Source: a virus
Strand: one strand, 5' to 3'
IMG/VR virus record: IMGVR_UViG_3300029305_000349
Coordinates: 4,246 to 68,245 of that record
Length of the DNA: 64,000 nucleotides
In this document: one piece after another, positions 5,977 to 35,704 of the stretch
Layout: each line of letters opens with the position of its first letter
Numbering within the stretch: the stretch's first letter is position 1
Program-made: the position numbers and the translations under genes
Notes under the pieces: generated by a model
What the model saw: only the letters and a program-made list of their open reading frames with translations
The model's database searches: none
Told to the model about the DNA's origin: nothing

Positions 5977-5993
5977 GAGGTGTGAAATTCAAA

Positions 5994-7523
5994 ATGGATA
6001 ATCAGGAATTAGCCCACTGGGGTATAAAAGGCATGAAGTGGGGTCGTCGAAGATGGCAGTACAAGGACGGCTCACTGACTCCAGAGGGTAAGAAGAGATA
6101 CGGCGACGGAGATGACGACGATCGCAGTGAGTCCAAACCGGAGAATAACGCACCTCGTGTCAAATCTGTTAGCGAGATGTCTAACAAAGAACTTCAAGAT
6201 GCGATTCAGAACTTGCAGTTACAGAAACAGTTCAAGCAGCTTCAGAAAGAACTTGCAGCTCAGGACGCACCGGCTCGGGAGCAGCAGAAACAGGGCGAGT
6301 CTTTTGTAAAAAAGTTCGCAAAAGAAGCGCTTGTTCCAGCAGTTACTAAAGTCGGTAAAGAATTTGCCGAGAAGAAGCTGAAAGAGAAACTTAAACTCGA
6401 TGTTAAAGAAAAGGACACTCTTGCTGAACTGGAGAAGGAGTATAAGTCTCTTAATCTCCAGAAAGACATTACTACTCTCAAAGACTTCTTCAAGAATTAC
6501 AAGGAAGGTAAACTGGAGTTCACACCTGGCAACGATGGTAAGAAAGATCGTTATCAGTATAAAGACAAGAAGTCTGACGAGCCTGATAACGGTGATGATC
6601 GTGACGAGGATGACGACATCGGGTATGATTTCAAACAAGACAAGAGTCGAGACCCTAAAGAGACAGCCCGTGAAAACATGAAAGACGGCGAAAAGATAGC
6701 GAAGAATAAACCCAAGCCGGCCGATTATACAGTCGATAACCCGGAACAGTATCGGGCCGATATCGTTAAGGGGAAAGCTTGGATTGACAAGTTATTAGAA
6801 GAGGTCGAGCATTCGGCGATGTCTGAAGACGAACTCTACCACTATGGGGTAAAAGGCATGAAGTGGGGTATAAGACGTTATCAGAATAAGGATGGTAGCC
6901 TGACCGATGCTGGTAGGAAGAGGTATAGAAATCAGAACCCTTATGAAGTTAGTAAATCCGAACATTTATCTGAAAAAACACGTAGGGGTAAATTAACGAA
7001 GGAACAGACGATAAAGGAGCTTAATGACCTATTAACAGTTCCTGACCATCCAGGATCGATCAAATTATTTAACGAGATCAATAAATTCAGTGGAAATTGG
7101 TACGATAGTAAGGGCGTGACCTCCGAGTTCAAAAAACGAGTTAAGGAATATAAGGATGAACGTAAATCCATAGATGACAAATACGAAGAAGACGTAAGAC
7201 GACTTTCTGACGAATATTACAAATTAAGGAATGAAATTATGAGGAGTCACTACAACCTAGCAAATCGATTATCTGTTGAAAAAACAGGTCGTGTGGTTGA
7301 CACGAAAAACTTCGATTCCGCGTATGATAAAGCCCAAAACAACCCTAGAGTGTTAGACGCTTATTCGGCACTCCGTAAACTATCCAGCGAACAGTCTAAG
7401 GCAGAGGGAGAATGCAGTCATCGATATGAGGATGATCTATGTGGCATTGTTCTTAACGATCTTGGCTACAAAGATAGTCCTGAAATTAGAGAGCTAATAT
7501 ACCCTTTCGTAGTTTGGGATTAA
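5994..7523 (+). CDS. head-associated protein with two HxGxKGMKWGxRR motifs
   Basis: HWGIKGMKWGRRRWQYKDGSLT and HYGVKGMKWGIRRYQNKDGSLT; RBS AGGAGG before ATG 5994. Confidence 0.75.
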   Translation: MDNQELAHWGIKGMKWGRRRWQYKDGSLTPEGKKRYGDGDDDDRSESKPENNAPRVKSVSEMSNKELQDAIQNLQLQKQFKQLQKELAAQDAPAREQQKQGESFVKKFAKEALVPAVTKVGKEFAEKKLKEKLKLDVKEKDTLAELEKEYKSLNLQKDITTLKDFFKNYKEGKLEFTPGNDGKKDRYQYKDKKSDEPDNGDDRDEDDDIGYDFKQDKSRDPKETARENMKDGEKIAKNKPKPADYTVDNPEQYRADIVKGKAWIDKLLEEVEHSAMSEDELYHYGVKGMKWGIRRYQNKDGSLTDAGRKRYRNQNPYEVSKSEHLSEKTRRGKLTKEQTIKELNDLLTVPDHPGSIKLFNEINKFSGNWYDSKGVTSEFKKRVKEYKDERKSIDDKYEEDVRRLSDEYYKLRNEIMRSHYNLANRLSVEKTGRVVDTKNFDSAYDKAQNNPRVLDAYSALRKLSSEQSKAEGECSHRYEDDLCGIVLNDLGYKDSPEIRELIYPFVVWD

Positions 7524-7540
7524 GTAGGTGAAAATTCAAA

Positions 7541-9304
7541 ATGGCATTATCTAACACCGCAGTTCCAAAATATTACGGTGCTTTTCGTGATGCAGTTTTA
7601 CGAGGCGAGATACCTGTATGCGAAGAAATCTCAATGCAGATGAATCGTATCGACGCTCGTATCGAAGACCCTAGATATTACTATGATGATCTTGCGGTTG
7701 AAGGCTTCGTAAAGTACTGTGAACGAGAACTCACCCTTACCGATGGCTCAGATCTAGTACTGCTCGATTCGTTCAAACTCTGGGCTGAGGATGTCTTCGG
7801 CTGGTGGATATTTGTCGATCGAACAGTATACGTTCCGGGTAAGAATGGTCGACCTGGACATTACAAAAGAAAGCGAGTTAAGAAACGTCTCGTTAAGAAA
7901 CAGTATCTGATAGTAGCTCGTGGTGGCGCTAAGACCATGTATGCTTCATTCATGCAGAATTTCTTCCTGAATGTTGATACAGCTACTACTCATCAGATTA
8001 CTACTGCACCTACGATGAAACAGGCGGAAGAAGTGTTATCCCCATTCCGCACTGCGATTACTCGAGCAAGAGGACCATTGTATAAGTTCCTGACTGAAGG
8101 TTCTATACAGAACACTACCGGCTCGAAGCGTAATCAACCTAAACTTCTATCTACCAAGAAAGGTATCGAGAACAAACTCACTGGTTCTTTACTCGAAGTT
8201 AGACCGATGACCATCGACAAGCTTCAGGGTTTACGATGTAAGGTTGCGACTATTGACGAATGGCTGTCTGGTGAACTTAGAGAAGATCCCGTTGCAGCTA
8301 TCGAACAGGGTGCGGCTAAGGAGCAATCCGGTACCGCGAATGACGATTACCTTATCATTGCAATCAGCTCTGAAGGTACCGTTCGTAATGGTAGTGGGGA
8401 TACAATTAAAAAAGAGTTAATGAAGATTCTCAGAGGAGAGTACGATGCTCCTCAGACTTCTATCTGGTGGTACAAGCTCGATTCTATTGACGAAGTTGGC
8501 GATCCGTCAAAATGGTTGAAAGCCAATCCGAATCTCGGTATCACAGTAACATATGATACCTATCAGTTGGATGTCGACAGAGCAGAACAGGCTCCAGCTA
8601 CCCGAAACGATATTCTGGCTAAGCGATTCGGTATTCCAATGGAAGGTTATACATACTTCTTCACATATGAAGAGACACAACCCCATCCGAAGAGGAGTTA
8701 TTGGGGTATGTCGTGTGCTCTTGGTGCCGACTTATCACTTGGAGACGACTTCTGTAGTTTCACGTTCTTATTCCCGTTACGCGGTGGCGCGTTCGGTGTC
8801 AAGACTCGAAACTATATTACCGAATCCACACTGTATAAATTACCGTCGGCTCTTCGTGACAAGTACGAAGAGTTCATTGCTGAAGGTAGTTTGATAGTCA
8901 TGAAGGGTACTGTACTCGATATGATGCAAGTATATGATGATCTCGATCAACACATTATCGATTGTGATTACGACGTTCGAGCATTCGGCTTCGACCCTTA
9001 CAACGCTAAAGATTTCGTAGCTAGATGGGAACAGGAGAATGGTCCGTTTGGTATAGAGAAAGTACCACAGGGTGCTAGAACCGAGTCAGTACCTTTAGGC
9101 GAGTTGAAGAAACTGGCTGAGGATAAGTTGCTGATCTTTGACGAAGAGCTTATGGTTTTCGCTATGGGTAACTGTATCACTCTTGAAGACACGAACGGTA
9201 ACCGTAAGTTATTAAAAGAGCGCTACGACAAGAAGATCGATGCCGTCGCTGCTATGATGGATGCTTATGTGGCATTCAAAGTCAATAGAGAATCTTTTGA
9301 GTGA
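7541..9304 (+). CDS. terL: terminase large subunit
   Basis: Walker A ARGGAKT, Walker B TIDEW, KANPNLG, nuclease GADLSLGDD and C-terminal KIDAVAA. Confidence 0.95.
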   Translation: MALSNTAVPKYYGAFRDAVLRGEIPVCEEISMQMNRIDARIEDPRYYYDDLAVEGFVKYCERELTLTDGSDLVLLDSFKLWAEDVFGWWIFVDRTVYVPGKNGRPGHYKRKRVKKRLVKKQYLIVARGGAKTMYASFMQNFFLNVDTATTHQITTAPTMKQAEEVLSPFRTAITRARGPLYKFLTEGSIQNTTGSKRNQPKLLSTKKGIENKLTGSLLEVRPMTIDKLQGLRCKVATIDEWLSGELREDPVAAIEQGAAKEQSGTANDDYLIIAISSEGTVRNGSGDTIKKELMKILRGEYDAPQTSIWWYKLDSIDEVGDPSKWLKANPNLGITVTYDTYQLDVDRAEQAPATRNDILAKRFGIPMEGYTYFFTYEETQPHPKRSYWGMSCALGADLSLGDDFCSFTFLFPLRGGAFGVKTRNYITESTLYKLPSALRDKYEEFIAEGSLIVMKGTVLDMMQVYDDLDQHIIDCDYDVRAFGFDPYNAKDFVARWEQENGPFGIEKVPQGARTESVPLGELKKLAEDKLLIFDEELMVFAMGNCITLEDTNGNRKLLKERYDKKIDAVAAMMDAYVAFKVNRESFE

Positions 9305-9315
9305 GGAAATTCAAA

Positions 9316-10263
9316 ATGGAAACTAAATTAAATTATGACGATATGCTTTTGGGCGAAGCTTTGATACACGCGGCTATGTCTAAAGAAGAACTTGAGCATC
9401 ATGGTATAAAAGGTCAGAAATGGGGAGTACGTCGATTCCAGAATAAAGACGGAAGTTTGACACCTCTTGGCAAAACTCGTTACAGTGGAGAATACAAACT
9501 CAAGTATGAATCGCCGATGACGGATACTGTCAAATCGTTCGCTAAGAATTTTGCGTCACACACATTAGCATCTTTAATACCTGGCTATGCTACTGTTCAC
9601 AACGCTTTCGTACTAGCATCTTACGCAACAACCATTCGAAATACAATTGATGGTAAAGATTACACTAAATCGGAAGGCTCTCTCGAGAAATTGTCAGATT
9701 TAAAGAAAAAATCAGACACCCAATCGAATGATATTTCTGTCGATGTTAAAAAAGTAAATCCTCGTTTCGGACAACAGGCTGGTAAAGTTAATAATTGTAT
9801 GTATTGTTCTGCCACTATGGAAATGAGACAGCGAGGGTACGACGTTATCGCTAGGTCTAAAGCTAAAGGTACATATACGAGCGCGTTTAAAGAATGGTTT
9901 GATGGTGTGGATATTGTCAAACCTAATGTACAGCGTAACCCTAAAGAATCTCGTAAAAACTATACCCAACGAGTATACAACCAAGTATGTAACGATATCG
10001 AGAAGTTTGGTAACGGTGCACGAGGCTTTGTAACGGTTGCATATGAAAAAGTAAATTCCGGCCACGCTATGTATTGGAAAGTCGATAACGGCCGTGTGTC
10101 TTTTTATGATGGGCAAAACGGTTCTACAAAAAACGATAGAATTTTCGGCCTTTCGAATGCTGCTAGTTACGCATACGGACGATTAGATAATTGTAAGTTG
10201 AAAGATGGAGTCACGGAAGTATGTCGAAGTAATCCGTTCAAGGAAAAGGAGAAGAAGAAATGA
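9316..10263 (+). CDS. HHGIKGQKWG-motif protein with C-terminal papain-fold toxin/deamidase-like domain
   Basis: N-terminal HHGIKGQKWGVRRFQNKDGSLT; NNCMYC...RGYDVIA, SGHAMYW and FYDGQNG give a Cys/His/Asp pattern of Tox-PL type. Confidence 0.7.
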   Translation: METKLNYDDMLLGEALIHAAMSKEELEHHGIKGQKWGVRRFQNKDGSLTPLGKTRYSGEYKLKYESPMTDTVKSFAKNFASHTLASLIPGYATVHNAFVLASYATTIRNTIDGKDYTKSEGSLEKLSDLKKKSDTQSNDISVDVKKVNPRFGQQAGKVNNCMYCSATMEMRQRGYDVIARSKAKGTYTSAFKEWFDGVDIVKPNVQRNPKESRKNYTQRVYNQVCNDIEKFGNGARGFVTVAYEKVNSGHAMYWKVDNGRVSFYDGQNGSTKNDRIFGLSNAASYAYGRLDNCKLKDGVTEVCRSNPFKEKEKKK

Positions 10264-10514: not shown

Positions 10515-10535
10515 TCGTAAGGAGGAAAATTCAAA

Positions 10536-11837
10536 ATGGAATTAAATTTTCGTTCCAGGCTTATGCATGGTTGGAACGCTTTCCGGGCAAATCGAGACCC
10601 GACACTGTTCATGAACGCCAGTTACGGTCAGTCTTCCTATCATAGACCTGATCGACCTAGACTTTCTTTAGGTAACGAGAAGTCTATTCTTACTACGATC
10701 ATGACTCGTATCGCTCTCGACGCTGCGAGTATGGAGATAGTCCACTGTCGACTCGACGAGAACGGTAGATTTGCAGAGCAGATCAATTCTGGACTAAACA
10801 ATTGCTTAACTCTCGAAGCCAATATCGATCAAACAGGTCGTGCATTTCTGTTCGATGTCTTTTTGTCGTGTCTTAATGAGGGTTGTATTGCAATTGTGCC
10901 AGTCGACACCGATATCGATCCGACTGATACTAGCAGTTATACAATCGAAACCATGCGAGTTGGTAAGGTAACTCAGTGGTATCCGAAACACATAGAAGTC
11001 TACTTATACAATGAAGAGACTGGCGAGAAGGAAACCGTTAAAGTACCTAAGAAGATGGCTGCTATTGTGGAAAATCCGTTCTACTCAATCATGAATGAAC
11101 CAAATTCCTCATTCCAGCGATTAAGAAAGACTTTAGCACATCTCGATTTGTACAACGATCGCAACAGTTCCAACAAACTCGATTTGCTTATTCAGTTGCC
11201 GTACACTATCAAATCCGACAAGCGTAAGGAGCAGGCTGAAAAACGACATAAAGAGATCGAAATGCAGCTTACTACATCCGAATATGGAATCGCTTACATT
11301 GATGGTACCGAGAAGGTAACACAGCTTAATCGACCGGTCGAGAACAATCTTCTGAAGCAGGCTGAATACTTAATGAATGAAGTATACACTCAGCTGTGTA
11401 TGACTCAGGGTGTTCTGGATGGTACAGCTGATGAGGCGACAATGCTAAACTACTATTCTCGAATAATCGAACCTTTAGTAGCAGCAGTTGTAGATGAGAT
11501 GAAGCGTACTTTCCTTAGCAAGACGGCTCGTACAAAGAAGCAGTCGATCGAGTTCTTCAGAGATCCGTTCAAGTTGGTACCGGTTGCTAATCTGGCAGAC
11601 ATTGCTGACAAGTTTACCAGAAATGAGATTCTGTCTTCCAACGAGTTGAGACAGATTATCGGATTCAAGCCATCTAAAGACCCTAAAGCCGATCAGTTGA
11701 TTAACAGTAATGTTCGTCAGCCGGAAGAAACTGATAAGAAGGAAGATGAAGAGGCTGAAGACGAGAAAGTAAAGAAAGAGGAACCGAAGAAGGTCCCTGA
11801 CAACAAAAAGAAGAAGGAGAAAAATCAAAATGGTTAA
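10536..11837 (+). CDS. portal protein
   Basis: 433 aa between terL and protease/capsid; HK97-like pattern ending in SSNELRQIIG. Confidence 0.9.
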   Translation: MELNFRSRLMHGWNAFRANRDPTLFMNASYGQSSYHRPDRPRLSLGNEKSILTTIMTRIALDAASMEIVHCRLDENGRFAEQINSGLNNCLTLEANIDQTGRAFLFDVFLSCLNEGCIAIVPVDTDIDPTDTSSYTIETMRVGKVTQWYPKHIEVYLYNEETGEKETVKVPKKMAAIVENPFYSIMNEPNSSFQRLRKTLAHLDLYNDRNSSNKLDLLIQLPYTIKSDKRKEQAEKRHKEIEMQLTTSEYGIAYIDGTEKVTQLNRPVENNLLKQAEYLMNEVYTQLCMTQGVLDGTADEATMLNYYSRIIEPLVAAVVDEMKRTFLSKTARTKKQSIEFFRDPFKLVPVANLADIADKFTRNEILSSNELRQIIGFKPSKDPKADQLINSNVRQPEETDKKEDEEAEDEKVKKEEPKKVPDNKKKKEKNQNG

Positions 11838-13590: not shown

Positions 13591-13627
13591 GTTCTAAGGA
13601 TCGTAAATTCAAAATGGAGTGATAAGA

Positions 13628-13951
13628 ATGGCTAAATGGTTTGGAAAGATCGGCTATGCCGAAACGGTTGATACTGGACACGGTATTTGGGAGCCGCAGT
13701 ATTCGGAACGCTACTACTATGGCGATATGATCCCAGTGATTCGACGATTGGAGAGTTCTGGCTCAGTCAATGACAACATTGATATTTCGAATAAGATCAG
13801 CGTTGTTTCCGATCCATATGCCATTCAACACTTCCACGCGATGAAGTATGCTGAAATCTCAGGTGTGAACTGGAAGGTTACGAGTGTTGAGGTTCAGTAT
13901 CCAAGATTAATTCTCACATTAGGAGGTTTGTATAATGGACAGACAGGGTGA
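13628..13951 (+). CDS. head closure/head-tail joining protein
   Basis: Position after capsid; WKVTSVEVQYPRLILTLG beta-rich end. Confidence 0.6.
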   Translation: MAKWFGKIGYAETVDTGHGIWEPQYSERYYYGDMIPVIRRLESSGSVNDNIDISNKISVVSDPYAIQHFHAMKYAEISGVNWKVTSVEVQYPRLILTLGGLYNGQTG

Positions 13952-14237: not shown

Positions 14238-14254
14238 CAGGAGGAATAATTACT

Positions 14255-14920: not shown

Positions 14921-14936
14921 TCGATAATGTAATCTT

Positions 14937-14970
14937 AAGGGCCTCACTTCAAAATGGTGGGGCTCTTCTT
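14937..14970 (+). terminator. intrinsic terminator-like hairpin after the major tail gene with TTCAAAATG in its loop
   Basis: AAGGGCCTCAC-TTCAAAATG-GTGGGGCTCTT-CTT. Confidence 0.65.
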
Positions 14971-14990
14971 AAATCGAAAGGAGAAAAATA

Positions 14991-15386: not shown

Positions 15387-15411
15387 CTTTGAAAGTACTG
15401 GAGGCGAGTAA

Positions 15412-15954: not shown

Positions 15955-17377
15955 GGAAATGTTAATCGAAATAGCGAAAACCGTATACGCCGAGGCGGGT
16001 GTTATGCGTGGTTGCTATAACGCGTACGTAGCTGTAGCCCAATGTATCAAGAACATCTATGAAGATGAGATACACGACCTCGCAAAAGTACTTGAGGAGT
16101 GTTTTACAGAGGTTTACGACTACTACGATTACATGTCGTATCAGGCTGCGGTCGATGTTTTCTGCAGAGGAGTTGTTAGAATTCAAAATGGAAGAATCTA
16201 TCAGTTCCGAAGCTTCAAAAAATACTCAGATGGCAATGGCAATCCTGATTGGGACAAACTTGCTGATCTGAAGAAAAATTACGATTACCTGGGAAGTGAC
16301 TCTATCTCTAACGAGTGGGGTCACTTTTATTTTGGTAAATGGAAACAAGGAGCGATTGATATGTACATCAATGATTCTTATGTTAACAATAATAAAAACA
16401 ATTATACGGTGGCTTCCCGAGGTAAGGACGCTATCGATTATATTGTAATTCACTACACCGCGAATCCGGGTTCCACTGCGGCCGCTAATGCTAGTTACTA
16501 CCAGTCTGGAGATACGAATGGCGTTTCAGCCCATTATTTCGTCGACGAGAAAGGTATTTGGCGTGGCGTTCGTGAGAAAGATATTGCCGGTCATTGCGGT
16601 AAGTGGGCTAACTCTACTTATCTGACAGACTGTAGAAACGCTAACAGTATCGGTATCGAGCTGTGTTGCAAATCTATGTCTGGTATGAAAGCGAGTCAGC
16701 TGACGGGTAGAGAAACCGATCTGTACATTGAACCGCAGACGATCGATTATGCTGTCGAGTTGGTGAAAGATATTATGTCCAGATACGGAATTAAAGTCGA
16801 TCATGTCATTCGTCACTATGACGTTCACAGTGGTAGAAAGCTGTGCCCGAGACCATTCGTTGGCGACGACATCAACCAGTATTACAAGATTTCAGGTAAT
16901 GCTAAATGGAAGGACTTCCTTAAGCGTCTTGACAGTTCCACCGAATCTGAAGTGGTTCCGGAAGCGCACGTCCCAGCAGCACCGTTCTTTGTAAAGGTTT
17001 TGGTCCCGGATCTTAATATTCGCTCGACTCCTACGATGGCTGATAATATCGTCGGTCAGACCGGTAAAGGTATCTTCACGATTACTGAAGTATCCAACAG
17101 GGGTTGGGGTAAACTTGCTTCTGGAGCTGGATACATTTGGTTGGGTAACGCGAATTATTGTACGATTCTAGACACCCCACTCAAAGTACGAGTTAGCATC
17201 CACGATTTGAATATTCGTACGGGCCCAGGAACTAACTACACTAAAACCGGAGAAACTACTGGAGTTGGAACATTCACGATTACTGAACTTAAAGTCGGTA
17301 AGGGTTCTAACACTCTTTGGGGTTGTCTTAAGTCTGGTGCCGGTTGGATTTCTATGGACTACGCGACTATCGTTTGA
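15947..17377 (+). CDS. endolysin: SleB-like hydrolase domain, Amidase_2 and two SH3-like domains
   Basis: IAKTVYAEAG; YIVIHYTA, VSAHYFVD, NANSIGIE, VIRHYDV..K.CP; two LNIRxxP...WGxLxSGAGW repeats. Confidence 0.85.
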   Translation: MDKEMLIEIAKTVYAEAGVMRGCYNAYVAVAQCIKNIYEDEIHDLAKVLEECFTEVYDYYDYMSYQAAVDVFCRGVVRIQNGRIYQFRSFKKYSDGNGNPDWDKLADLKKNYDYLGSDSISNEWGHFYFGKWKQGAIDMYINDSYVNNNKNNYTVASRGKDAIDYIVIHYTANPGSTAAANASYYQSGDTNGVSAHYFVDEKGIWRGVREKDIAGHCGKWANSTYLTDCRNANSIGIELCCKSMSGMKASQLTGRETDLYIEPQTIDYAVELVKDIMSRYGIKVDHVIRHYDVHSGRKLCPRPFVGDDINQYYKISGNAKWKDFLKRLDSSTESEVVPEAHVPAAPFFVKVLVPDLNIRSTPTMADNIVGQTGKGIFTITEVSNRGWGKLASGAGYIWLGNANYCTILDTPLKVRVSIHDLNIRTGPGTNYTKTGETTGVGTFTITELKVGKGSNTLWGCLKSGAGWISMDYATIV

Positions 17378-17390: not shown

Positions 17391-17768
17391 ATGATAAGTT
17401 TCAGACACAAGGGTGACTTTTCTAAGTCAGCTAATTACTTGACAAAAGTTAAGAACGCTGTTCGTCTTGGCGATCTGGATAAGTACGGACGTGAAGGCGT
17501 AAAAGCCCTTGCGTCTGCGACTCCGGTCGATACTGGATTGACCGCTGCTTCGTGGGAGTACAAGATTAGTCGGTCGCCTAATTCGATAACGATCAGTTTC
17601 AACAACACAAATATTCAAAATGGAGTTCCAATTGCCATAATTTTGTACTATGGTCACGGAACTAAAAACGGAGGATGGGTTCAAGGTAGAGACTACATCA
17701 AACCGGCCATTCGTCCGATATTTGACAGAATTACAGCTAGCGCCTGGGAGGAGGTAACTAAGTTATGA
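17391..17768 (+). CDS. HK97 gp10-like tail completion protein
   Basis: TPVDTG...YGHGT...YIKPAI motif. Confidence 0.75.
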
Positions 17769-24889: not shown

Positions 24890-24892
24890 CGA

Positions 24893-27370
24893 ATGGCTAC
24901 CACATACACTGTGAAAAAAGGAGATACTCTCTCCCAGATCGCAACTACTTATGCTTCGTCTATTTCTGGCAGTACGCTTAACGAAAGGATTAATACCCTT
25001 GTTAAGTTGAATAATATTTCGAATAGGGACTTGATCTATGTAGGTCAGGTCCTTAAACTGTCAGGAACTGCGGATTCAGTTAAACCCAATACGAGTTCTA
25101 TGGCTACGGTAACTGCTTTTGGTTTCCAGTCGAATAGCGACAACACTCTGTTTGCTATTTGGACTTGGGATAAGAGTAATACCAATAACTATCAGGTTCG
25201 ATGGTATTATGCTACCGGAGATGGATATTGGTTTATCGGTACCGATAGCACTGTCGATTTGAAGCAGGCTACTTACAACATACCTTCGAATGCCACAAAG
25301 GTTAAGTTCTTTGTAAAACCTATCTCTAAGACTTATACGTCGAACAATAAAGAAGTTTCTTACTGGACTGCGAATTGGTCTACGGAGAAGATTTACAATG
25401 TAAGTGATAACCCTCCTAAAGAGCCATCAACTCCAAGTCTGGATGTAGAAGGGAACACTTTAACAGTACGAGTTGACAATCAGGATTTGAATGCTGAAGG
25501 TATTCAGTTCCAGATTGTTAAAAACGATTCGACTGTTTATAAGACTGGTAAAGCTAAACTTATAACCAGTTCTGCAGTTTACTCTTGTACTCTTGCGTCT
25601 GGTTCCGAGTATAAAGTGCGTGCTCGATCTTATCGTGGCGACCAGTATAGTGGCTGGTCCGATTACTCGAGTAATGTTAAACCCGTTCCTGCTAAACCTG
25701 CGAATATTACATCTCTTAAGGCTACGTCTGAAACCTCAATCCGAATCGAATGGTCTGAAGCTGTTGGAGCTGAAACTTACGAGATCGAATATACGACTAA
25801 ACAGGAATACTTCGATGGTTCTGATCAAGTAACATCACAGTCGGGTATTAAAACTACCTACTACGAGAAAACCGGTCTTGAAACTGGACAGAAATATTAC
25901 TTTAGAGTTCGTGCTGTAAATAGTGAAGGCGAATCAGCGTGGACTGCGGTCAAAATGGTTACGATTGGTGATGAACCAGCGGCACCTACTACTTGGTCAT
26001 CCACCACAACAGCTATTACTGGCGAGGCTCTGAATTTATATTGGGTACATAATGCGTCAGATTCGTCAAGTCAGACTTATGCAGAACTCGAATTAACGAT
26101 CGATGGGGTGAAAGAGACCTACACGATTAAGAATTCGGAAGATGAGGACGAGAAAGACAAGACCAGCGTATACTCAATAGACACGTCTAAATATTCAGAA
26201 GGAAGTAAGATATTATGGCGTGTACGTACAGCCGGTGTAACTCTGGCTTACGGCGATTGGTCTATACAGAGAACAGTTGATATTTACGCTCGACCAACAT
26301 TAACACTTCGAGTAACCGATGCTGATGGAACTGAATTATCGACACTCACCTCATTCCCGATTTATATTTCAGGTCTGGCTGGACCAAGTACTCAGGAACC
26401 TATCGGTTATCATTTAACTGTGGTAGCTAACGAGGCTTATGAGACAGTCGACCAGATCGGAAATACAAATCAGATAAATGCTGGTGAAGTTATATATTCA
26501 AAACATTTCGACACTACTGACCAGTTAGTGGTGGAACTGTCAGCTGGCGAAATCGATTTAGAGAACAACATAAGTTATACGATTAACTGCGTTGTTTCTA
26601 TGAATTCCGGTTTGACAGCAACGGATTCCTCGGACTTCAAAGTAGCATGGACCGATGTAGAATACGAACCAAACGCCTCGATTGTGTATGACAAAGATAT
26701 TTACGTTACACATATACGACCGTACTGCGAAGACAACGATGGTAACCCAATAGAAGGTATGACACTGTCTGTGTATCGTAGAGAGTTCGACGGCGCGTTT
26801 ACTGAACTGGCTAAAGGTCTTCCGAATGGTAATAACACATTTGTAACCGACCCGCACCCAGCTCTCGATTTCGCTCGTTACAGAATCGTAGCGATTGACG
26901 ATGCTACCGGTGCTGTAAGTTACTGTGATATTCCAGCGGTTGCGATCGGTGAAACAGCGATTATTATTCAGTGGGATGAAGATTGGAGTAATTTCGATTC
27001 CGATAGCGAGGATGCTCTGGTTAGCCCACCGTGGTCTGGATCGTTATTACGACTGCCATACAATGTCGATGTATCCGAGAGTACAAATCAAGATACGGAA
27101 TTGGTCGAGTACATTGGTCGTAAGTACCCGGTCGCATACTACGGTACACAACTCGGTTATGCGGCTACATGGAACGCTGTGATTCCGTATAACGACGAGG
27201 AAACTCTGTACGGGTTACGTCGTTTGGCTAATTGGATGGGCGACGTGTATATCAGAGAACCATCCGGAACTGGGTATTGGGCTAATGTTGGGGTATCTTT
27301 CAGTCAGAAACATCTCGATTTGACAATTCCGGTTCAGTTAAGTATTACACGAGTAGAAGGAGGTGCATGA
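24893..27370 (+). CDS. minor tail protein with N-terminal LysM and fibronectin-III domains
   Basis: YTVKKGDTLSQIA LysM; FN3 motifs YKVRARS and YYFRVRAVNSEGESAW. Confidence 0.8.
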   Translation: MATTYTVKKGDTLSQIATTYASSISGSTLNERINTLVKLNNISNRDLIYVGQVLKLSGTADSVKPNTSSMATVTAFGFQSNSDNTLFAIWTWDKSNTNNYQVRWYYATGDGYWFIGTDSTVDLKQATYNIPSNATKVKFFVKPISKTYTSNNKEVSYWTANWSTEKIYNVSDNPPKEPSTPSLDVEGNTLTVRVDNQDLNAEGIQFQIVKNDSTVYKTGKAKLITSSAVYSCTLASGSEYKVRARSYRGDQYSGWSDYSSNVKPVPAKPANITSLKATSETSIRIEWSEAVGAETYEIEYTTKQEYFDGSDQVTSQSGIKTTYYEKTGLETGQKYYFRVRAVNSEGESAWTAVKMVTIGDEPAAPTTWSSTTTAITGEALNLYWVHNASDSSSQTYAELELTIDGVKETYTIKNSEDEDEKDKTSVYSIDTSKYSEGSKILWRVRTAGVTLAYGDWSIQRTVDIYARPTLTLRVTDADGTELSTLTSFPIYISGLAGPSTQEPIGYHLTVVANEAYETVDQIGNTNQINAGEVIYSKHFDTTDQLVVELSAGEIDLENNISYTINCVVSMNSGLTATDSSDFKVAWTDVEYEPNASIVYDKDIYVTHIRPYCEDNDGNPIEGMTLSVYRREFDGAFTELAKGLPNGNNTFVTDPHPALDFARYRIVAIDDATGAVSYCDIPAVAIGETAIIIQWDEDWSNFDSDSEDALVSPPWSGSLLRLPYNVDVSESTNQDTELVEYIGRKYPVAYYGTQLGYAATWNAVIPYNDEETLYGLRRLANWMGDVYIREPSGTGYWANVGVSFSQKHLDLTIPVQLSITRVEGGA

Positions 27371-27371
27371 T

Positions 27372-28430
27372 ATGGCTGATTGGACTAAGTCTATGCAGCA
27401 AACATTCGAGTATTACACGGTCGATCCGGATACTTGGAAAGATGTCGATTTACTTACGAATGTGAAATCATGCACAATCGATCGTGATTTGGAAGCTGAG
27501 ACTCTTGGTTCCGCTACGATCGACGTTACTGAAACTGTCGGGGAATGTTACATACGAGTGTATCTCAAAACAATTCAAAATGGAATTACCGAGAAACACC
27601 CGTTAGGTACATTCCTCGTACAGACACCATCTTCGCCGTTCAACGGTAAGGTTCGTAATGTCTCTATGGACTGCTATACTCCGTTACTCGAGGCGAAGGA
27701 GAAACAACCATCCCTTGGATATTCTATTCTCAAGGGCGCCAACATCATGGATAACGTATTTCAGTTGGTTGATGAAGCAGTACGAGCTCCGGTTGTACCA
27801 GCTACTTGCGATAAGACACTTCACGACGACTTCGTAGCAAATGAACAGGACACTTGGTTGATATTTAACGCGGATCTTATGGCTAACGCTAATTATAGAT
27901 TTGACCTGGACGAATTAGGTCGAGTGTTATTTGCTCCGAATCAGAAAATAGAATCTCTACAACCAGTTTGGACGTATACTGACGACAATAGCTCCATCTT
28001 ATATTCTGATGTGACTACTGAACATGACTTATACGGCATTCCGAATGTTGTGGAGGTTTTATATTCTAGTGGTAATACGACTTACTATGCGAAGGTAGTG
28101 AACGACGACCCTGATAGTCCGACTTCTACTATTAGACGAGGTAGGGAGATTACTTATAGAATTAACAATCCGGATTTGTACGGAGAACCAGATCAAGATC
28201 AAATCGACGAATATGCGATTCGTGTTATGAAGGAATTATCATCGGTAGAGTATTCCGTTAGCTACAAACACGCTTATTGTCCGGTTCGTATTGGTGACTG
28301 TGTACGTATCAATTACGAGAGAGCTGGATTATTTGATGTGAAGGCTAAAGTTATATCTCAGTCGATTACTTGTAAGCCGGGATGTCCGGTAAGTGAAAAA
28401 GCGGTATTTACTGTTAAATTATGGGGGTGA
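27372..28430 (+). CDS. minor tail/baseplate hub protein
   Basis: Position; PLGTFLV, IPNVVEV, SPTSTIRRGREI, PVRIGDCV. Confidence 0.65.
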   Translation: MADWTKSMQQTFEYYTVDPDTWKDVDLLTNVKSCTIDRDLEAETLGSATIDVTETVGECYIRVYLKTIQNGITEKHPLGTFLVQTPSSPFNGKVRNVSMDCYTPLLEAKEKQPSLGYSILKGANIMDNVFQLVDEAVRAPVVPATCDKTLHDDFVANEQDTWLIFNADLMANANYRFDLDELGRVLFAPNQKIESLQPVWTYTDDNSSILYSDVTTEHDLYGIPNVVEVLYSSGNTTYYAKVVNDDPDSPTSTIRRGREITYRINNPDLYGEPDQDQIDEYAIRVMKELSSVEYSVSYKHAYCPVRIGDCVRINYERAGLFDVKAKVISQSITCKPGCPVSEKAVFTVKLWG

Positions 28431-28435
28431 GAACT

Positions 28436-32311: not shown

Positions 32312-32331
32312 TATAGAAAGGAAAATTCAAA

Positions 32332-34485
32332 ATGGCAGTAAGTGGTACATTAAATACTAACTCGTATGAGGGTAGATATTATCAGTTCGCATGGACCGCC
32401 ACTCAATCCGCAGCGAATAACCGTTCAACTATATCGTGGACATTAAGTGCGGTTGGTGGGACATCGTCGTGGTACGCAGAACGAACCCTTATACTTAAGG
32501 CCGTTGGTACTACTTTATATTCTAAGACAGCTCGAGTAGAACGATATACCGGACAAATAACCTCGGGTACGTTCCATGTCGATCACGATAGTAATGGTGA
32601 TGCGAACTTTTCGGTTTCAATACAAGCTGCAGTATACGTTTCAACTGTTAACTGTACTAAGACGGGGTCGTTCGCATTAACCCGTATCGCTAGGGCTTCG
32701 GCTCTTACAGCTGCTAACGGTACGTTGGGTACGGCTCAGACTTTGACCATAACCCCGGCAAATAGTAGCTACAAACATAAGATTACTTATACTTGCGGTT
32801 CGGTTTCGGGGTATGCAGCTGGTAGCTCTACAGCATACGCCAGCTCAAATAGTATATCCTGGACCCCACCTGTAAGTTTGGCAGCGCAGAACACCACCGG
32901 TACGAGTGTTTCAGTAACTTTATATTTGAAGACTTTCGACGGTGACACCCAGATTGGATCGGTAAGCAAAACGCTTACTATGGCGATACCGTCGAGTGTT
33001 AAACCAACCGTATCAATAGCGGTATCGGACCCAACTGGATATTTGACTACGTATGGTGGTTACGTACAAGGCAAGTCGACGATTAAAATTGTAGCTACAG
33101 CAAGTGGTAGTCAGGGCTCGACGATCAAATCTTACAGCACAACCGCTAACGGTAAGACCTATACGACTGCTACGGCCACTACTGGAGTTGTAGCTTCGTC
33201 TGGAACACTTACTGTAAGTACCACCGTAAAAGATAGCCGAGCTCGTACCGCATCAGCGAGTGAAAGTATAACCGCCTTAGCATATACGAATCCGAAGATT
33301 ACTAAACTGTCCGCGGTAAGATGTAATTCGGACGGTACTCCTAATAACTCGGGATCATATTTGAAAGCGGTATTTTCGAGTTCGGTCACGTCACTCAATT
33401 CAAAGAATACTGCTACTTATGTGCTCAAGTATAAGAAGTCAACAGCTTCGACTTACACTTCAGTAACTCTTAGTGATTATACTAAAAACTATGCAGTAAG
33501 TGGTGGCAGTTACGTATTCGCAGCGGAGATTAAGTCCAGTTATGACATTACGTTGACTGTTACGGACGGATTTACCAACGTATCCAGATCGACTAAAGGT
33601 AAAACAGTAACTAAGTTCTGGAGTTGGCTGTATGGCGGTGTAGGATGGGCTTTTGGTAAATACGCAGAGGTCGAGAACGCTGTCGAATTTGGTATGAACG
33701 CTATATTCCACGAGAACGTACACGGTAATACAATCGGACTTGCTGAGTTACCCGCGATACCAGCAAATAGTGATTTGAACGATTATGTAACAACCGGTTG
33801 TTATGCGGTGAGACAAAATGTCACGGCCGCGACCATAGCTAACATACCATGTGCTCACGGTGGTCGATTGATAGTGACAAGTGCATTAGGTACGAAGATT
33901 AACGAAAGCGGTTGGACGTACTGGAAACAACAGTATATTCCGTATTCGAATGAATATCCCACATATACGCGATCTATAACTAGGAACGACAATAACGTAC
34001 TAACGTATGGCGCTTGGGTGTATGAAACGTTAACTAATCTCGGTTCTTGTACTACTTTAACGAATGCTATTGATAGTCGTATTAATACTAAATTTCCAAC
34101 GCTACACACAAACGCTATGGCTCAAAAAGTATTATGGACTGGACCTCGTTATATGACGGCTGATCATACAGCCAACCTATCCGAATTAGTAAGCTCTCAA
34201 AATACAGGTATAGTTTTAGTATGGTCCGAGTATTCGGATGGCACAGCACGTGACTATAGTTTCAACTTAACCTTCATACCGAAGCAGTATGTAACTACCC
34301 ATTCTGGCTGTGGTGTAACTTGTATTATTAGCTCAACATCATTCAATGCTATGGCTACCAAATATGTTTATATTTCAGACGACCATATAACCGGCAATAC
34401 CTATAACAACGCTTCGGGAACCAGTGATAGCGGTATTAAATATGGTAACAATTCTTACGTTTTACGTTATGTATGGGGTGTATAA
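32332..34485 (+). CDS. siphovirus minor structural protein (DUF859-like)
   Basis: QSAANNRSTISW, ALTRIARAS, GGYVQGKS, RCNSDGT, AFGKYAE. Confidence 0.7.
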   Translation: MAVSGTLNTNSYEGRYYQFAWTATQSAANNRSTISWTLSAVGGTSSWYAERTLILKAVGTTLYSKTARVERYTGQITSGTFHVDHDSNGDANFSVSIQAAVYVSTVNCTKTGSFALTRIARASALTAANGTLGTAQTLTITPANSSYKHKITYTCGSVSGYAAGSSTAYASSNSISWTPPVSLAAQNTTGTSVSVTLYLKTFDGDTQIGSVSKTLTMAIPSSVKPTVSIAVSDPTGYLTTYGGYVQGKSTIKIVATASGSQGSTIKSYSTTANGKTYTTATATTGVVASSGTLTVSTTVKDSRARTASASESITALAYTNPKITKLSAVRCNSDGTPNNSGSYLKAVFSSSVTSLNSKNTATYVLKYKKSTASTYTSVTLSDYTKNYAVSGGSYVFAAEIKSSYDITLTVTDGFTNVSRSTKGKTVTKFWSWLYGGVGWAFGKYAEVENAVEFGMNAIFHENVHGNTIGLAELPAIPANSDLNDYVTTGCYAVRQNVTAATIANIPCAHGGRLIVTSALGTKINESGWTYWKQQYIPYSNEYPTYTRSITRNDNNVLTYGAWVYETLTNLGSCTTLTNAIDSRINTKFPTLHTNAMAQKVLWTGPRYMTADHTANLSELVSSQNTGIVLVWSEYSDGTARDYSFNLTFIPKQYVTTHSGCGVTCIISSTSFNAMATKYVYISDDHITGNTYNNASGTSDSGIKYGNNSYVLRYVWGV

Positions 34486-34504
34486 ATAGAAAGGAGAATT
34501 CAAA

Positions 34505-34768
34505 ATGGATTTCATGGCTTTATTTGCAGAATACTTTGTGGCAGTGGTTGTGTTGGGATGTTGCGGTATTGGATATTTACTGAAACATTCCTTCGACATG
34601 ATCCCTAACAAGTTCATTCCTACGATCCTTGCAATTGTGGGGATTATACTTAACTTACTTGCAAGTGGAGTGTCCCTCGAATCAGTGATATATGGAATGA
34701 TGATGGGTCTTGCATCTACGGGACTTCATCAGGCATTTACTAGATTCGTAGAACAGACGACGGAGTGA
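34505..34768 (+). CDS. holin
   Basis: 87 aa, three hydrophobic helices, IPNKFIPTIL and GLASTGLHQAF motifs. Confidence 0.8.
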   Translation: MDFMALFAEYFVAVVVLGCCGIGYLLKHSFDMIPNKFIPTILAIVGIILNLLASGVSLESVIYGMMMGLASTGLHQAFTRFVEQTTE

Positions 34769-34773
34769 TATTT

Positions 34774-35070
34774 ATGGCGTTAAAAAAGAAGATTAAACAG
34801 CCGAACGGTGTCGAATTGGAGTATCACCGCATAGCGATGGTTACGATCGAAACTAATCAGCAGACTACTGTACTCGTACGTTCGTACGTGAACGCAGAAG
34901 GTCGTAAGTACGAATTGGATTATGCGGAAGGTAAAATTACTGGAGAACCGGTATTTCCGTACACATCCGGAGCTTACAGGTCATTTGAATACTCTGAAGA
35001 TATGGATATAACGAACGCGTACGAGTGGTTAAAGAAACAGCCTGACTTCGAAGGGGCTGAAGATATTTAA
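34774..35070 (+). CDS. hypothetical phage protein
   Basis: MALKKKI..NGV.LEYHRI...AYEWLKKQPDFEGAEDI. Confidence 0.6.
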   Translation: MALKKKIKQPNGVELEYHRIAMVTIETNQQTTVLVRSYVNAEGRKYELDYAEGKITGEPVFPYTSGAYRSFEYSEDMDITNAYEWLKKQPDFEGAEDI

Positions 35071-35087
35071 TTAAGGAGGACATACAT

Positions 35088-35357
35088 ATGTCAGACACAT
35101 TATTTGTCAAGAATACTATTCAGAGAGTAGGATTTACAGTTATCGACGGAGTCAAGGTTTTACAGCACACCTGCTCAATCGAGTCAGATAACCCGGAAAA
35201 GATGAGAGTCGTTACTACCAAGCTCAACGAGGAGATGTATAAGAATAATCGTAACGCTTGTAGAGCTGATATTGCAGAGTTCGAGGACGGTTCTTATCTG
35301 ATGCAGGAAGAGATACTCGCGAATGTTACTGCTCCGACTCCTGAAGCAAGCGAGTAA
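35088..35357 (+). CDS. hypothetical protein
   Basis: RBS AGGAGG and ORF. Confidence 0.6.
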   Translation: MSDTLFVKNTIQRVGFTVIDGVKVLQHTCSIESDNPEKMRVVTTKLNEEMYKNNRNACRADIAEFEDGSYLMQEEILANVTAPTPEASE

Positions 35358-35371
35358 GCAGGTGGTTCAAA

Positions 35372-35704
35372 ATGATTGAATATGTTATTACATTTATAGC
35401 TGCTATGGGAATCCCATCTACGATTATGGGGTTCCTTGTATGGTGGCTGAAACGGACGATTGATAAGAACGAGAAGAAACGAGAAGAACGTGAATCGGTT
35501 ACCGAACAGCTTATGTTAATAATTATGAAAAACAGCAGAGCTACCAATGTCCTGGCTGAAGCAACTGCTAAGGCGGTACAGCGTATCCCGGACGCGCATT
35601 GCAATGGCGATATGAAAGCCGCCTTAGAAGAAGCAGAAGCGATTCAAAATGAAGAAAAGGACTTCTTATTCGATCAGGGAATAAAGCATATATTTGGTGA
35701 TTAG
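35372..35704 (+). CDS. membrane protein (holin-like/lysis accessory)
   Basis: N-terminal transmembrane helix plus coiled coil, HCNGDM motif. Confidence 0.55.
   Translation: MIEYVITFIAAMGIPSTIMGFLVWWLKRTIDKNEKKREERESVTEQLMLIIMKNSRATNVLAEATAKAVQRIPDAHCNGDMKAALEEAEAIQNEEKDFLFDQGIKHIFGD

Follow-up and report, generated by a model that had tools for sequence, protein, structure and literature searches.

An oriented ten-nucleotide word under selection in the late transcription unit of a family of gut siphophages

Why does a phage carry the same ten-nucleotide word over and over along one half of its genome, always on the same strand? The question is raised by the 64,000-nt window analyzed here (positions 4,246 to 68,245 of IMG/VR record IMGVR_UViG_3300029305_000349), for which the original prediction had listed 14 exact plus-strand copies of TTCAAAATGG. 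Counted on both strands, the window contains exactly these 14 matches, spanning 5988-34499 on the plus strand, and 0 on the minus strand, with a mean of 0.12 and a maximum of 2 in 100 dinucleotide shuffles; the complete 68,245-bp record again gives 14 versus 0 by strand. Eight copies with one mismatch are present in the window, all on the plus strand. They comprise the five predicted between 6 and 35.6 kb (8506, 11824, 25949, 35366 and 35643) and three more at 4543, 39086 and 51009. The early half of this phage lacks exact matches, and the two one-mismatch copies in 36-64 kb (39086 and 51009) are compatible with chance, because the shuffle mean for at most one mismatch to TTCAAAATGG is 5.0 for both strands together. 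The refined motif, WTCAAAATGR, has 17 sense and 0 antisense copies in the 68-kb phage. In the family it recurs about every 1.3-2.6 kb between the region directly following terS and the lysis genes, in any reading frame, and is read as nucleic acid in one orientation. The features are as follows.

2..1045, + strand: 3' part of a YonO-like two-barrel RNA polymerase gene (991 aa; genome 2315-5290)
5988..5997, + strand: TTCAAAATGG; ATG 5994, preceded by AGGAGG, starts the gene of a 509-aa DUF7211 protein
7535..7544, + strand: TTCAAAATGG; contained ATG starts terL (7541-9304)
8506..8515, + strand: GTCAAAATGG inside terL, reading P-S-K-W
9310..9319, + strand: TTCAAAATGG; ATG starts the gene of a 315-aa DUF7211/Gln_amidase protein
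10530..10539, + strand: TTCAAAATGG; ATG starts the portal gene (10536-11837)
11824..11833, + strand: ATCAAAATGG; ATG starts the capsid-protease fusion gene, overlapping the portal 3' end
13608..13617, + strand: TTCAAAATGG, intergenic, 3' of the capsid gene
14938..14966, + strand: 11-bp hairpin 3' of the major tail gene, containing TTCAAAATGG at 14948-14957
16182..16191, + strand: TTCAAAATGG inside the amidase/lysin ORF, frame xTT-CAA-AAT-GGx
17614..17623, + strand: TTCAAAATGG inside the ORF just before the tape measure gene
19812..19821, + strand: TTCAAAATGG, first of three copies within the tape measure gene
21159..21168, + strand: TTCAAAATGG, second of three copies within the tape measure gene
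24717..24726, + strand: TTCAAAATGG, third of three copies within the tape measure gene
25949..25958, + strand: GTCAAAATGG, a weak variant, inside the gene of an 825-aa tail protein
27574..27583, + strand: TTCAAAATGG inside the gene of a 355-aa tail protein
32326..32335, + strand: TTCAAAATGG; ATG starts the gene of a 717-aa tail protein
34499..34508, + strand: TTCAAAATGG; ATG starts the holin gene
35366..35375, + strand: TTCAAAATGA; ATG starts a 110-aa gene (35372-35704)
35643..35652, + strand: TTCAAAATGA inside the 35372-35704 gene, the final copy ahead of the first early cassette promoter (35721)

As had been noticed, eight copies embed a start ATG: six exact ones (5988, 7535, 9310, 10530, 32326 and 34499) and two variants (11824 and 35366), each behind a Shine-Dalgarno (SD) sequence, and the copy at the portal start is found again in relatives. 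The intergenic and hairpin-loop copies are likewise where they had been described. The GG of the 13608 copy forms, with a following AG, the SD for the gene that comes next, whose ATG is at 13631, an arrangement (TTCAAAATGGAGTG) shared with the relatives G001 and G018, and the 10-mer at 14948 supplies the 7-nt loop UCAAAAU and closing pairs of a hairpin with a weak U-tract (MFE -20.4 kcal/mol, z -2.65). The six intragenic exact copies (16182, 17614, 19812, 21159, 24717 and 27574) all read xTT-CAA-AAT-GGx, or xQNG; the 17614 site recurs in G005, G012 and G019, and a site similar to 27574 in G011 and G017. The proposed xQNG reading is correct for these six copies and fails as a rule, since relatives use all three frames: the 102 exact copies of 12 genomes include 33, 17 and 4 intragenic copies per frame and 43 embedded in starts, so that about half are intragenic and some 40% lie at start codons.

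The phages that carry the word form a family of gut Clostridia siphophages, ~55-68 kb in size and with a YonO-like single-subunit RNA polymerase, including the cultured Faecalibacterium phage FP_oengus, and we found no description of it in the literature searched. In 28 related records it occurs 171 times on one strand and once on the other, and 12 full genomes hold 102 exact sense copies and 0 antisense copies. It is unchanged among phages whose proteins are only ~40-60% identical and whose GC content ranges from 36 to 52%; the only tolerated changes are T1>A (30 copies) and G10>A (21 copies). Selection acts on the nucleotides and not on the peptide. Synonymous variants encoding QNG are at background (TTCAGAATGG, 2 copies; TTCAAAACGG, 1 copy), and relatives keep the nucleotides of intragenic copies. 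This result, like the lack of antisense copies and of exact copies in the early half, goes against the outcomes that the original prediction had named as refuting it. At the terL site, 10 of 12 genomes share ATC-AAA-ATG-GAR unchanged, a level of codon identity that just 16 of 265 invariant degenerate columns attain. This site (alignment position +864), kept in 10 of 12 genomes, is lost here, and the 8506 copy is its probable replacement; its GTC variant GTCAAAATGG is found in 6 sense and 0 antisense copies when the 12 genomes are pooled. Similarly, the first S-K-W of a ~180-aa protein is encoded as TCA-AAA-TGG in 9 of 13 genomes, and a second S-K-W, four codons on, uses five Ser codons. Both the terL and the ~180-aa protein sites show turnover.

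Placement is also non-random. The copies are spaced more evenly than random, with a gap CV of 0.63 versus 0.89 in simulation and values below simulation in 13 of 13 genomes, and the non-start copies are uniformly spread along ORFs (KS p = 0.24). Purines predominate in the 3' flank (+10: A 70, G 38 of 119; +11: A 56, G 46 of 119). In all 13 genomes the polymerase gene and terS precede the sites, and the predicted restriction to the structural half is essentially right in that they occupy the late structural and lysis block. It does not extend to the F. prausnitzii subgroup, which has a few additional copies at the starts of early genes; in FP_oengus, G001 and G018 several sit at early-gene start codons, adjoining the integrase. 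This oriented, evenly spaced word, conserved across a phage family, is therefore a real control signal and more than start-codon context, as had been argued: WTCAAAATGR acts in cis and is under selection within the late transcription unit.

What accompanies the word is the polymerase, encoded just upstream of the late operon in 28 of 28 motif-bearing records. It carries GADFDGD, matches phrog_4291 at 1100 bits and has a double-psi beta-barrel at residues 440-544 (Z 9.6-10.7), including alignment to the Pol I/II/III barrels. The 991-aa protein resembles YonO of the Bacillus prophage SPbeta (PMC5467207), as well as the HTH-flanked RdRP-like protein that the actinophage/1706/FP_oengus supercluster encodes (bioRxiv 10.1101/842583), in having a DxDGD loop in the barrel and HTHs at both ends and in being encoded ahead of the late genes; in the available portions of these two sources, neither counterpart has a known cis signal. 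The SPbeta late operon lacks the motif, as do Lactococcus phage 1706 and Gordonia phage Duffington by pattern count and 1706 and Arthrobacter phage Circum by k-mer search. 1706, Circum and Duffington are lytic relatives. Both polymerase HTH domains are conserved in the motif-less 1706 and Circum. The polymerase family thus has no general need of the word, because relatives sharing it and SPbeta lack the word, and we regard the polymerase as associated context and as a putative reader. No clade-specific protein tracks the motif perfectly, the best candidate (11 of 12 genomes) having no known fold or family, and no binding protein for the word was identified.

We tentatively favor, with low confidence, a per-length co-transcriptional elongation signal of the late transcription unit. 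The word would act on the sense strand, as non-template DNA, in the RNA-DNA hybrid or in the nascent RNA, and might serve as a pause, reset or processivity site during transcription of the ~31-kb late operon; its reader may be the phage polymerase or a factor travelling along with it, and it would be neither a promoter nor a repressor operator. Start codons serve as cheap places to embed it, because it contains ATG and the spacer from SD to ATG is otherwise free. RNA-DNA hybrids are about as long as the conserved core of 8-10 nt, and pause or initiation sites of other polymerases are often a pyrimidine followed by G, comparable to T8, G9 and the ensuing purines. This reading is opposed by the copies at early-gene starts in FP_oengus, G001 and G018, by the absence of the word from relatives that share the polymerase and from the SPbeta late operon, and by the lack of a protein that tracks it perfectly. 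The interpretation in the original prediction is supported in part, and antitermination or stabilization of the late operon, or directional packaging marks, may also apply.

Dispersed late promoters of the phage polymerase are an unlikely alternative, in which WTCAAAAT would be an AT-rich recognition or melting element and transcription would start at the following G-G-R-R. T7 class II/III promoters and the 8-bp T4 late promoter (TATAAATA) are indeed short, oriented, phage-specific words that are repeated, with no copies on the opposite strand, in the late region of phages supplying transcription machinery of their own, and T7 promoter density resembles that of our sites. The polymerase in every motif genome, the short, oriented and invariant word, its confinement to the block transcribed in SPbeta by polymerases of this kind and its purine-rich 3' flank fit as well. 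T7 and T4 late promoters, however, lie ahead of the genes they drive and have mapped start sites, whereas the operon head between cos and terS is free of copies in 13 of 13 genomes. Nor do non-start copies gather before the next gene (19 observed against 18.5 expected at up to 200 nt from the ORF 3' end; 2 against 9.2 at up to 100 nt), which disfavors T7-style promoters ahead of it. The word follows the SD and takes in the ATG in 43 of 102 copies, and an RNA starting at G9 would therefore be unable to translate the gene. Relatives with the same polymerase and SPbeta lack such a dispersed word, and the part of PMC5467207 on this operon describes the SPbeta late genes as transcribed by YonO as one operon with one TSS. 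It is very unlikely that the sites are stoperator-like roadblocks, at which a prophage repressor would halt polymerase entering the late operon in lysogens. By the accessible part of PMC9283540, Cluster A mycobacteriophage stoperators (L5 gp71; the TipsytheTRex repressor) are short, asymmetric, phage-specific words in more than 12 copies, strictly transcription-oriented over tens of kb and, in L5, as dense as ours, so that the original analogy stands for anatomy (asymmetric, oriented, dispersed). Integrase is present in 16 of 29 records, making many members temperate; two accessory genes directly upstream of the late operon here occur in 0 of 12 relatives, and in the F. prausnitzii phages the first early genes, which adjoin the integrase, contain copies. 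The same part of PMC9283540 places stoperators at promoters and short intergenic spaces in both arms, read by an immunity repressor and varying among immunity groups, in phages using host polymerase. WTCAAAATGR differs in being intragenic in half of its copies, with synonymous constraint, confined to the late block of phages with their own polymerase, and invariant deep across the clade, where immunity specificities would diversify (partly PMC9283540). The analogy also fails in that this phage's early promoters carry no copy, and no repressor candidate was found in a search that covered small ORFs non-exhaustively. Motif load is independent of integrase (6.6 copies with and 6.1 without detectable integrase in near-complete relatives, the latter being 8 records at ≥92% completeness), which disfavors a lysogeny-linked stoperator.

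A polar DNA signal outside transcription seems quite unlikely: strand-specific nicks as in T5 or tf, marks read by a terminase as it travels rightward from cos, or micro-homology linkers through which modules would be exchanged. The nick sites of T5, phiKMV-like phages and tf, as well as ops/RfaH, Chi and KOPS, are one-strand oriented short consensus words, and our word is one-stranded, evenly spaced and oriented in the packaging direction inferred from the cos end; an HNH endonuclease gene adjoins terS. The A/T-rich left-end word of cos resembles the motif (CTTCAAAAATTC in G005, TTGAAAATTC in others), but this likeness is low-complexity and cos words differ among genomes. Blastn blocks end near sites in 4 of 68 cases versus 1.3 expected (P = 0.06), which is non-significant and confounded by gene boundaries. 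Nicking, priming or packaging gives no rationale for restriction to the late half. T5 tolerates the loss of nick sites, and sites of that kind would not be expected to hold fixed intragenic positions under such strong synonymous constraint. The ops element usually has one leader site; Chi and KOPS are host-genome-wide, unlike our motif, which stays at background in host chromosomes outside prophages, and a host Chi-type signal is accordingly disfavored. An operator at the RNA level is improbable too. A protein binding UUCAAAAUGG in the late mRNA would tune initiation at the embedded AUG (RegA- or SAS-like) or cut or stabilize the long transcript, and intragenic copies would act on decay or processing. 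The sense-only word, the AUG exactly at an SD-preceded start codon in 43 of 102 exact copies, the mostly start-associated early-region copies of F. prausnitzii phages and the copy displayed in a hairpin loop agree with this. Intragenic copies without an SD, however, share the same synonymous constraint, and single-strandedness in native flanks equals that of random insertion (0.524 versus 0.525, p = 0.60). Stops after an off-frame AUG are not selected to come early (median 9 versus 11 codons, p = 0.13-0.15), which also disfavors mini-ORFs. RNA-RNA pairing is disfavored, as 16S rRNA, the hairpin RNA, tRNA-Met and the 42-kb RNA region pair with the word no better than shuffles.

The start-codon register of ~40% of copies could instead reflect a translational role. 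Here a close counterpart is the Start-Associated Sequence of Cluster K mycobacteriophages (GGGATAGGAGCCC), which the available part of PMC3203893 describes as oriented, start-linked, present in 11-19 copies in one genome half, absent from the host genome, conserved across subclusters and of unknown function. According to that part, the Cluster K word contains the SD, lies 3-7 bp upstream of the start, and is found virtually always at gene starts and in the non-structural half (PMC3203893). WTCAAAATGR, in contrast, follows the SD, includes the ATG, is at starts in only ~40% of copies and occupies the structural half.

The 10-mer TTCAAAATGG occurs 14 times in the window by exact matching, exclusively on the + strand between 5988 and 34499, whereas dinucleotide-preserving shuffles of the window contained 0.12 copies (mean of 100 shuffles). 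The full 68,245-bp record likewise holds 14 copies against none, and with one mismatch permitted, eight further sites appear in the window, again only on the + strand. The original prediction had described 14 oriented copies, located at start ATGs, between genes, in a terminator loop and inside genes as xQNG peptides; the count on both strands (14 vs 0) upholds the former, and each of the settings was recovered. A start ATG preceded by a Shine-Dalgarno (SD) sequence lies within six of the exact copies and within two variants. Of the other exact copies, one falls between genes, one forms part of an 11-bp hairpin with the loop UCAAAAU, and six are inside genes in the frame xTT-CAA-AAT-GGx. The block that bears the word is the late module, which comprises terS, HNH, connector, terL, portal, a capsid-protease fusion, major tail protein, amidase, a 2374-aa tape measure, tail proteins and holin. 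Immediately past the last copy, at 35721, begins a set of ten near-identical early promoters, none of which carries the word.

A 19-mer that joins the ribosome-binding site to the word is matched exactly by at least 112 IMG/VR contigs, and many of these have a length of 55-67 kb. Across 28 full records, which were picked via these matches so that at least one copy each was guaranteed by selection, the 10-mer is present in 2-12 copies per record, grouped within a block of about 20-25 kb and adding up to 171 on one strand vs 1 on the other; the reversed-sequence control gave 7 in total. A set of 12 genomes, made up of the genome of the window's phage and 11 of the 28 records taken whole (GC 36-52%), contains 102 exact sense copies and no antisense copy. 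Within this set, single substitutions are tolerated only at position 1 (T>A, 30 copies) and position 10 (G>A, 21 copies), and the motif can therefore be written WTCAAAATGR, flanked by A-rich sequence on the 5' side and by purines at +10 and +11. In this generalised form the window's phage has 17 sense and 0 antisense sites. The cultured Faecalibacterium phage FP_oengus carries 19 sense and 2 antisense copies, 14 from terL to the tail genes and 5 among the first early genes, and a 69.8-kb human-faecal record carries 10 sense and 1 antisense.

The word can also be followed into bacterial genomes. At least three copies, on a single strand only, were found at 24 of 60 genome-contig loci, nearly all of them in Lachnospiraceae, Faecalibacterium, Eubacterium and allies; prophage copies are mostly in Clostridia. 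On a complete F. prausnitzii chromosome, 13 of 21 copies fall in one 27-kb prophage block and the remaining 8 are split 4 and 4, and in four other host assemblies the word is near the control level outside prophage clusters. In practical use, a strand-specific cluster of WTCAAAATGR is a simple marker by which such prophages and their late modules can be located and oriented, in metagenomes as well as in genomes of Clostridia. The capsid protein, used as a query for related loci in genome contigs, returned none. Among lytic relatives, the word is not above the control level in Lactococcus phage 1706 and Gordonia phage Duffington; no 9- or 10-mer reaches at least five copies in the late regions of 1706 and Arthrobacter phage Circum, and the 39.7-kb YonO-dependent late operon of SPbeta has no comparable word. 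A literature search for the exact 10-mer yielded no paper on phages among the matches listed. The main texts of two relevant reports (bioRxiv 10.1101/842583; PMC5883640) do not mention promoters, on which their supplements, and that of PMC5467207 with its TSS figure, may bear. The word is real and family-wide, and no earlier description of it was found in the papers searched.

Copies are separated by a mean gap of 1.3-2.6 kb in the 13 genomes (the 12 and FP_oengus), and within the main cluster the gaps are more even than random in 13/13 genomes (mean CV 0.63 vs 0.89 simulated), although the genomes are related and neither this tally nor the Wilcoxon figures for spacing represent independent samples. 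With ORF calls that are crude heuristics, 54 of the 102 exact copies in the 12 genomes lie inside ORFs and 43 at starts, where the word includes the ATG; the SD (G-rich, -9 to -5) stands upstream of the word and not within it. The start-codon register may reflect economy, since the ATG already provides three letters and the spacer between SD and ATG is free; a copy embedded in this way would constrain only the first base of codon 2. Non-start copies are spread uniformly along ORFs (KS p = 0.24) and are not enriched at ORF 3' ends (19 vs 18.5 expected within 200 nt; 2 vs 9.2 within 100 nt).

Codon comparisons indicate that selection on the word is exerted at the nucleotide level. Intragenic copies use all three reading frames (33, 17 and 4 copies), and the synonymous versions of Q-N-G, TTCAGAATGG and TTCAAAACGG, occur 2 times and once, respectively, vs 33 copies of the word in that frame. 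In a codon alignment of terL, the stretch ATC-AAA-ATG-GAR (I-K-M-E) is identical in 10/12 genomes, while neighbouring invariant residues use many codons; codon identity in 10/12 genomes is seen in only 16 of 265 invariant degenerate columns, three of which fall at this site. FP_oengus has the same site; the window's phage has lost it (ATT AAA AAA) and carries GTCAAAATGG about 100 nt downstream. A comparable case is a protein of about 180 aa with the peptide L/I-S-K-W-E-S-K-W, whose first S-K-W is written xTT-TCA-AAA-TGG in 9/13 genomes and whose second uses TCC, TCA, TCG, TCT or AGC. Three F. prausnitzii phages keep the S-K-W residues with other codons, and copies of the word are found elsewhere in or near that gene. 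The conserved terL copy (alignment codons 288-291, window ~8405) also places an in-frame ATG at about residue 290, roughly in the middle of the 587-aa TerL; no SD lies ahead of it, and the window's phage has K where M stands.

Few regulatory codes that span a whole genome are known in phages, dispersed oriented words being among them, and the closest described kinds are stoperators, the Start-Associated Sequences (SAS) of Cluster K mycobacteriophages, and the dispersed promoters of T7 and T4. With all of these the present word shares orientation, copy number and phage specificity, yet it departs from each in a defining feature: location in the case of stoperators and SAS, placement relative to genes in the case of promoters. 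It is set apart from them in three further respects, as it is kept within genes by synonymous choice, is evenly spaced and remains invariant across phage genomes of 36-52% GC. The original prediction had likened it to stoperators, and this analogy holds in part: like those of Cluster A, the sites are asymmetric, numerous and oriented with transcription (17 vs 0), but whereas stoperators are described from promoter regions and short intergenic spaces (PMC9283540), 54/102 copies here are intragenic and none is at the early promoters. SAS resemble the word in having one orientation, in marking one genome half and in being absent from the host; however, virtually all SAS are reported 3-7 bp upstream of a start and contain the SD core (PMC3203893), whereas here 43/102 copies are at starts, with the ATG within the word and the SD upstream of it. 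The half marked is structural, whereas that of SAS is non-structural.

Downstream of the cos end and upstream of terS, in the position from which the late operon would be read, no copy of the word is found in 13/13 genomes. This bears on internal promoters, a rival explanation that gains from the fact that the phage, as in T7-like systems, encodes its own RNA polymerase. Unlike T7-like dispersed promoters, however, the word has no copy at the head of the unit and is not enriched upstream of the next gene, so that both a head promoter and a T7-style promoter before the next gene were rejected. A scan for sigma-70-type promoters over 4-23 kb gave 40 matches vs 37.3 expected. Stoperator-like roadblocks, for which orientation and copy number speak, face the discrepancy in location. 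Stoperators have as their reader the immunity repressor of the prophage, with a helix-turn-helix and a stoperator domain, and no candidate repressor that might read the word was found among the annotated proteins of the phage. No tie of the word to lysogeny is apparent: a tyrosine or serine integrase was detected in 16/29 records, with a mean load of 6.6 words, and the 8 records at least 92% complete without a detected integrase have a mean load of 6.1, although other integrase families or modes of lysogeny could escape such detection.

An operator acting at the RNA level would accord with the single orientation of the copies. Pairing with 16S rRNA, with the anti-SD hairpin RNA, with tRNA-Met or with the structured RNAs at 42 kb was nevertheless rejected: duplex energies did not surpass those of 300 shuffles for each candidate, and hardly any reverse-complement 7-mers occur. 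Selection for single-stranded display was not seen, as the unpaired probability is 0.524 at 178 native sites vs 0.525 at 712 in-silico insertions, and off-frame ATGs at 70 sites are not followed by unusually early stops that would define mini-ORFs (median 9 vs 11 codons, p = 0.13 and 0.15). DNA-level marks for nicking, packaging or recombination constitute the remaining rival; the model for nicking would be the strand-specific sites of T5 and tf, at whose consensus one strand of the virion DNA is interrupted. In a test for recombination linkers, which drew on no more than 36 HSPs, 4 of 68 block ends lay near sites, with 1.3 expected (P = 0.06). A polar motif of the host of the Chi or KOPS/SRS kind was ruled out, as host chromosomes are at background outside prophages and show no chromosome-wide over-representation or skew. 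A phylogenetic profile returned no gene that is present in 12/12 genomes with the motif and absent from 1706 and Circum; its best candidate (46892-47476, in 11/12 genomes) has no Pfam match, and its atlas result was uninformative.

What remains, as far as sequence comparison can tell, would be a signal needed once per 1.3-2.6 kb, in one orientation, and read by something conserved in the clade. We tentatively suggest, as a possibility that we would not put at even chances, that the word is a co-transcriptional elongation signal of the late unit: a pause, reset or processivity site along the operon, with the phage polymerase, or a factor that accompanies it, as the presumed reader. Such a role would fit both the core size and the T/G junction with purines after it, by analogy with pause signals.

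The polymerase in question is a 991-aa protein encoded just upstream of the late operon (genome 2315-5290; ORF end at window 1045). It contains GADFDGD at residues 516-522 (DFDGD at 519) and helix-turn-helix (HTH) domains at about 80-124 and at 958-990, matches phrog_4291 'RNA-dependent RNA polymerase' with 1100 bits and has a weak Pfam RdRP match (E 0.0016, residues 510-643). An AlphaFold2 model built from 10 orthologs reached a pLDDT of 63.7, with residues 231-384 below 50. Foldseek with the whole model gave nothing at E <= 0.001, the weak top matches being QDE-1 (E 0.046-0.079) and double-psi beta-barrel (DPBB) domains. VIA-align placed residues 440-544 onto DPBB domains, namely the p97 N domain (Z 10.7, rmsd 2.0, 81 aligned) and the catalytic barrels of Pol I, II, III and ASFV RNAP (Z 9.6-9.8, 88-96 aligned, 19-21% identity). 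The predicted structure recovers one such barrel with the DFDGD loop, where the YonO family has two. Homologs are present in 28/28 records, just upstream of terS in 13/13 full genomes, and in about 250 cultured phages, which form the lineage of the capsid-protease fusion.

The polymerase assignment was proposed earlier for the supercluster (Koert et al., bioRxiv 10.1101/842583). For SPbeta, YonO is shown to transcribe the late genes as a single operon; its one start lies upstream of a non-coding RNA, and the promoter is described as not known (Forrest et al., PMC5467207). The word is no general feature of this polymerase family: it is missing from 1706 and Circum, although both phages have the polymerase with its two HTH domains, the anti-SD leader and the cos end. 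The word does not covary with the HTH domains, and the anti-SD hairpin leader was ruled out as a co-varying partner. It is possible, at less than even chances, that the YonO-type two-barrel polymerase itself reads the 10-mer directly, whether for a pause or reset of hybrid length or for internal entry. If it did, the word would give this ancient class of single-subunit polymerases its first defined cis-signal, and would be a clade-specific 'late-operon code' written into coding sequence through synonymous choice. The word occurs in a prevalent gut phage lineage, the relatives of FP_oengus, a group reported from up to 40% of the virome samples analysed (Cornuault et al., 2018; PMC5883640). Because this lineage carries a YonO-like polymerase without known promoter or control signals, the word offers a concrete, mutable handle on what guides minimal polymerases of this kind through an operon of 30 kb.

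Several other elements of the genome were recorded alongside the word.

Further features of the genome (window coordinates unless stated)
1487-4542: two genes from cos to the late operon, one for a 512-aa protein of unknown function, the other for a leucine-rich-repeat (LRR) protein of the DUF285/BspA type, 506 aa long
4691-4765: tRNA-Met (CAT), between the anti-SD hairpin leader and terS
5994-7523 and 9316-10263: two genes flanking terL, with an N-terminal DUF7211 tag in both
48783-52778: 1331-aa protein with an N-terminal DUF5906 NTPase
63863-64000 and genome 1-130: 21-bp tandem repeat

A second word confined to the sense strand, TGATATTT, occurs over the whole genome, for example at 1441, 13779, 18930, 23973, 36589, 49128 and 62577; in the genome of the window's phage it counts 20 vs 0, and TTGATATT counts 19 vs 0. 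The 13 genomes pooled hold 236 copies, with 36 vs 2 in FP_oengus against 0.7 expected. In most relatives it is concentrated in the early/replication half, complementary to WTCAAAATGR; its distribution in the window's phage is mixed, one relative (G010) lacks it, and GATATT alone counts 113 vs 11.

The stretch at 1425-1475 (GGTCTTGATATTTTCTCCGGAGGGATATTTTTG) is a probable cos site. Six 'linear' relatives start at the homologous CTTTGAAAATTCTCCGGGGG, one of them preceded by an Illumina adapter remnant, and the published left ends of 1706 and Circum resemble it. The virion map would then read cos, hairpin RNA, terS, late genes, lysis, int, early genes, polymerase, cos. The 123-bp 'direct terminal repeat' of the record consists of the 21-bp tandem unit ATTATTTTTTGTAGCAGATTA, with 6-7 units per assembly end; since cos lies elsewhere, this array is more likely internal and iteron-like, at the point where a circular assembly was opened. 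The two genes past cos are present in 0/12 relatives and are thus likely to be accessory genes (morons) whose position lets them read into the late operon.

The early 'cassette' promoter (35700-43200, 61992) consists of TTCGCG, a 14-nt spacer, TATTAT and GAG, and shares its unusual layout and much of its sequence with CGCGTAAATTACA-GGGC-TATAAT of Circum (L236 24968-31590). That it is conserved across phyla points to a reader encoded by the phage, possibly the HTH-flanked polymerase. TTCGAAATGG (4543-4575), which follows the LRR gene's stop and precedes the hairpin RNA by about 24 nt, is probably not a copy of the motif; taken together with its flank (TTCG..ATTACACTCC), it is similar to the cassette promoter's upstream half (14/20 positions by eye). 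The tRNA-Met, likewise inspected by eye, is without initiator features, having no three G-C pairs in the anticodon stem and a paired 1:72. The second of the genes flanking terL also encodes a glutamine deamidase domain of the papain fold (Pfam Gln_amidase, E 1.7e-9). The 1331-aa protein is conserved in 12/12 relatives, 1706 and Circum, and its orthologs in FP_oengus and Circum are annotated as DNA polymerase.
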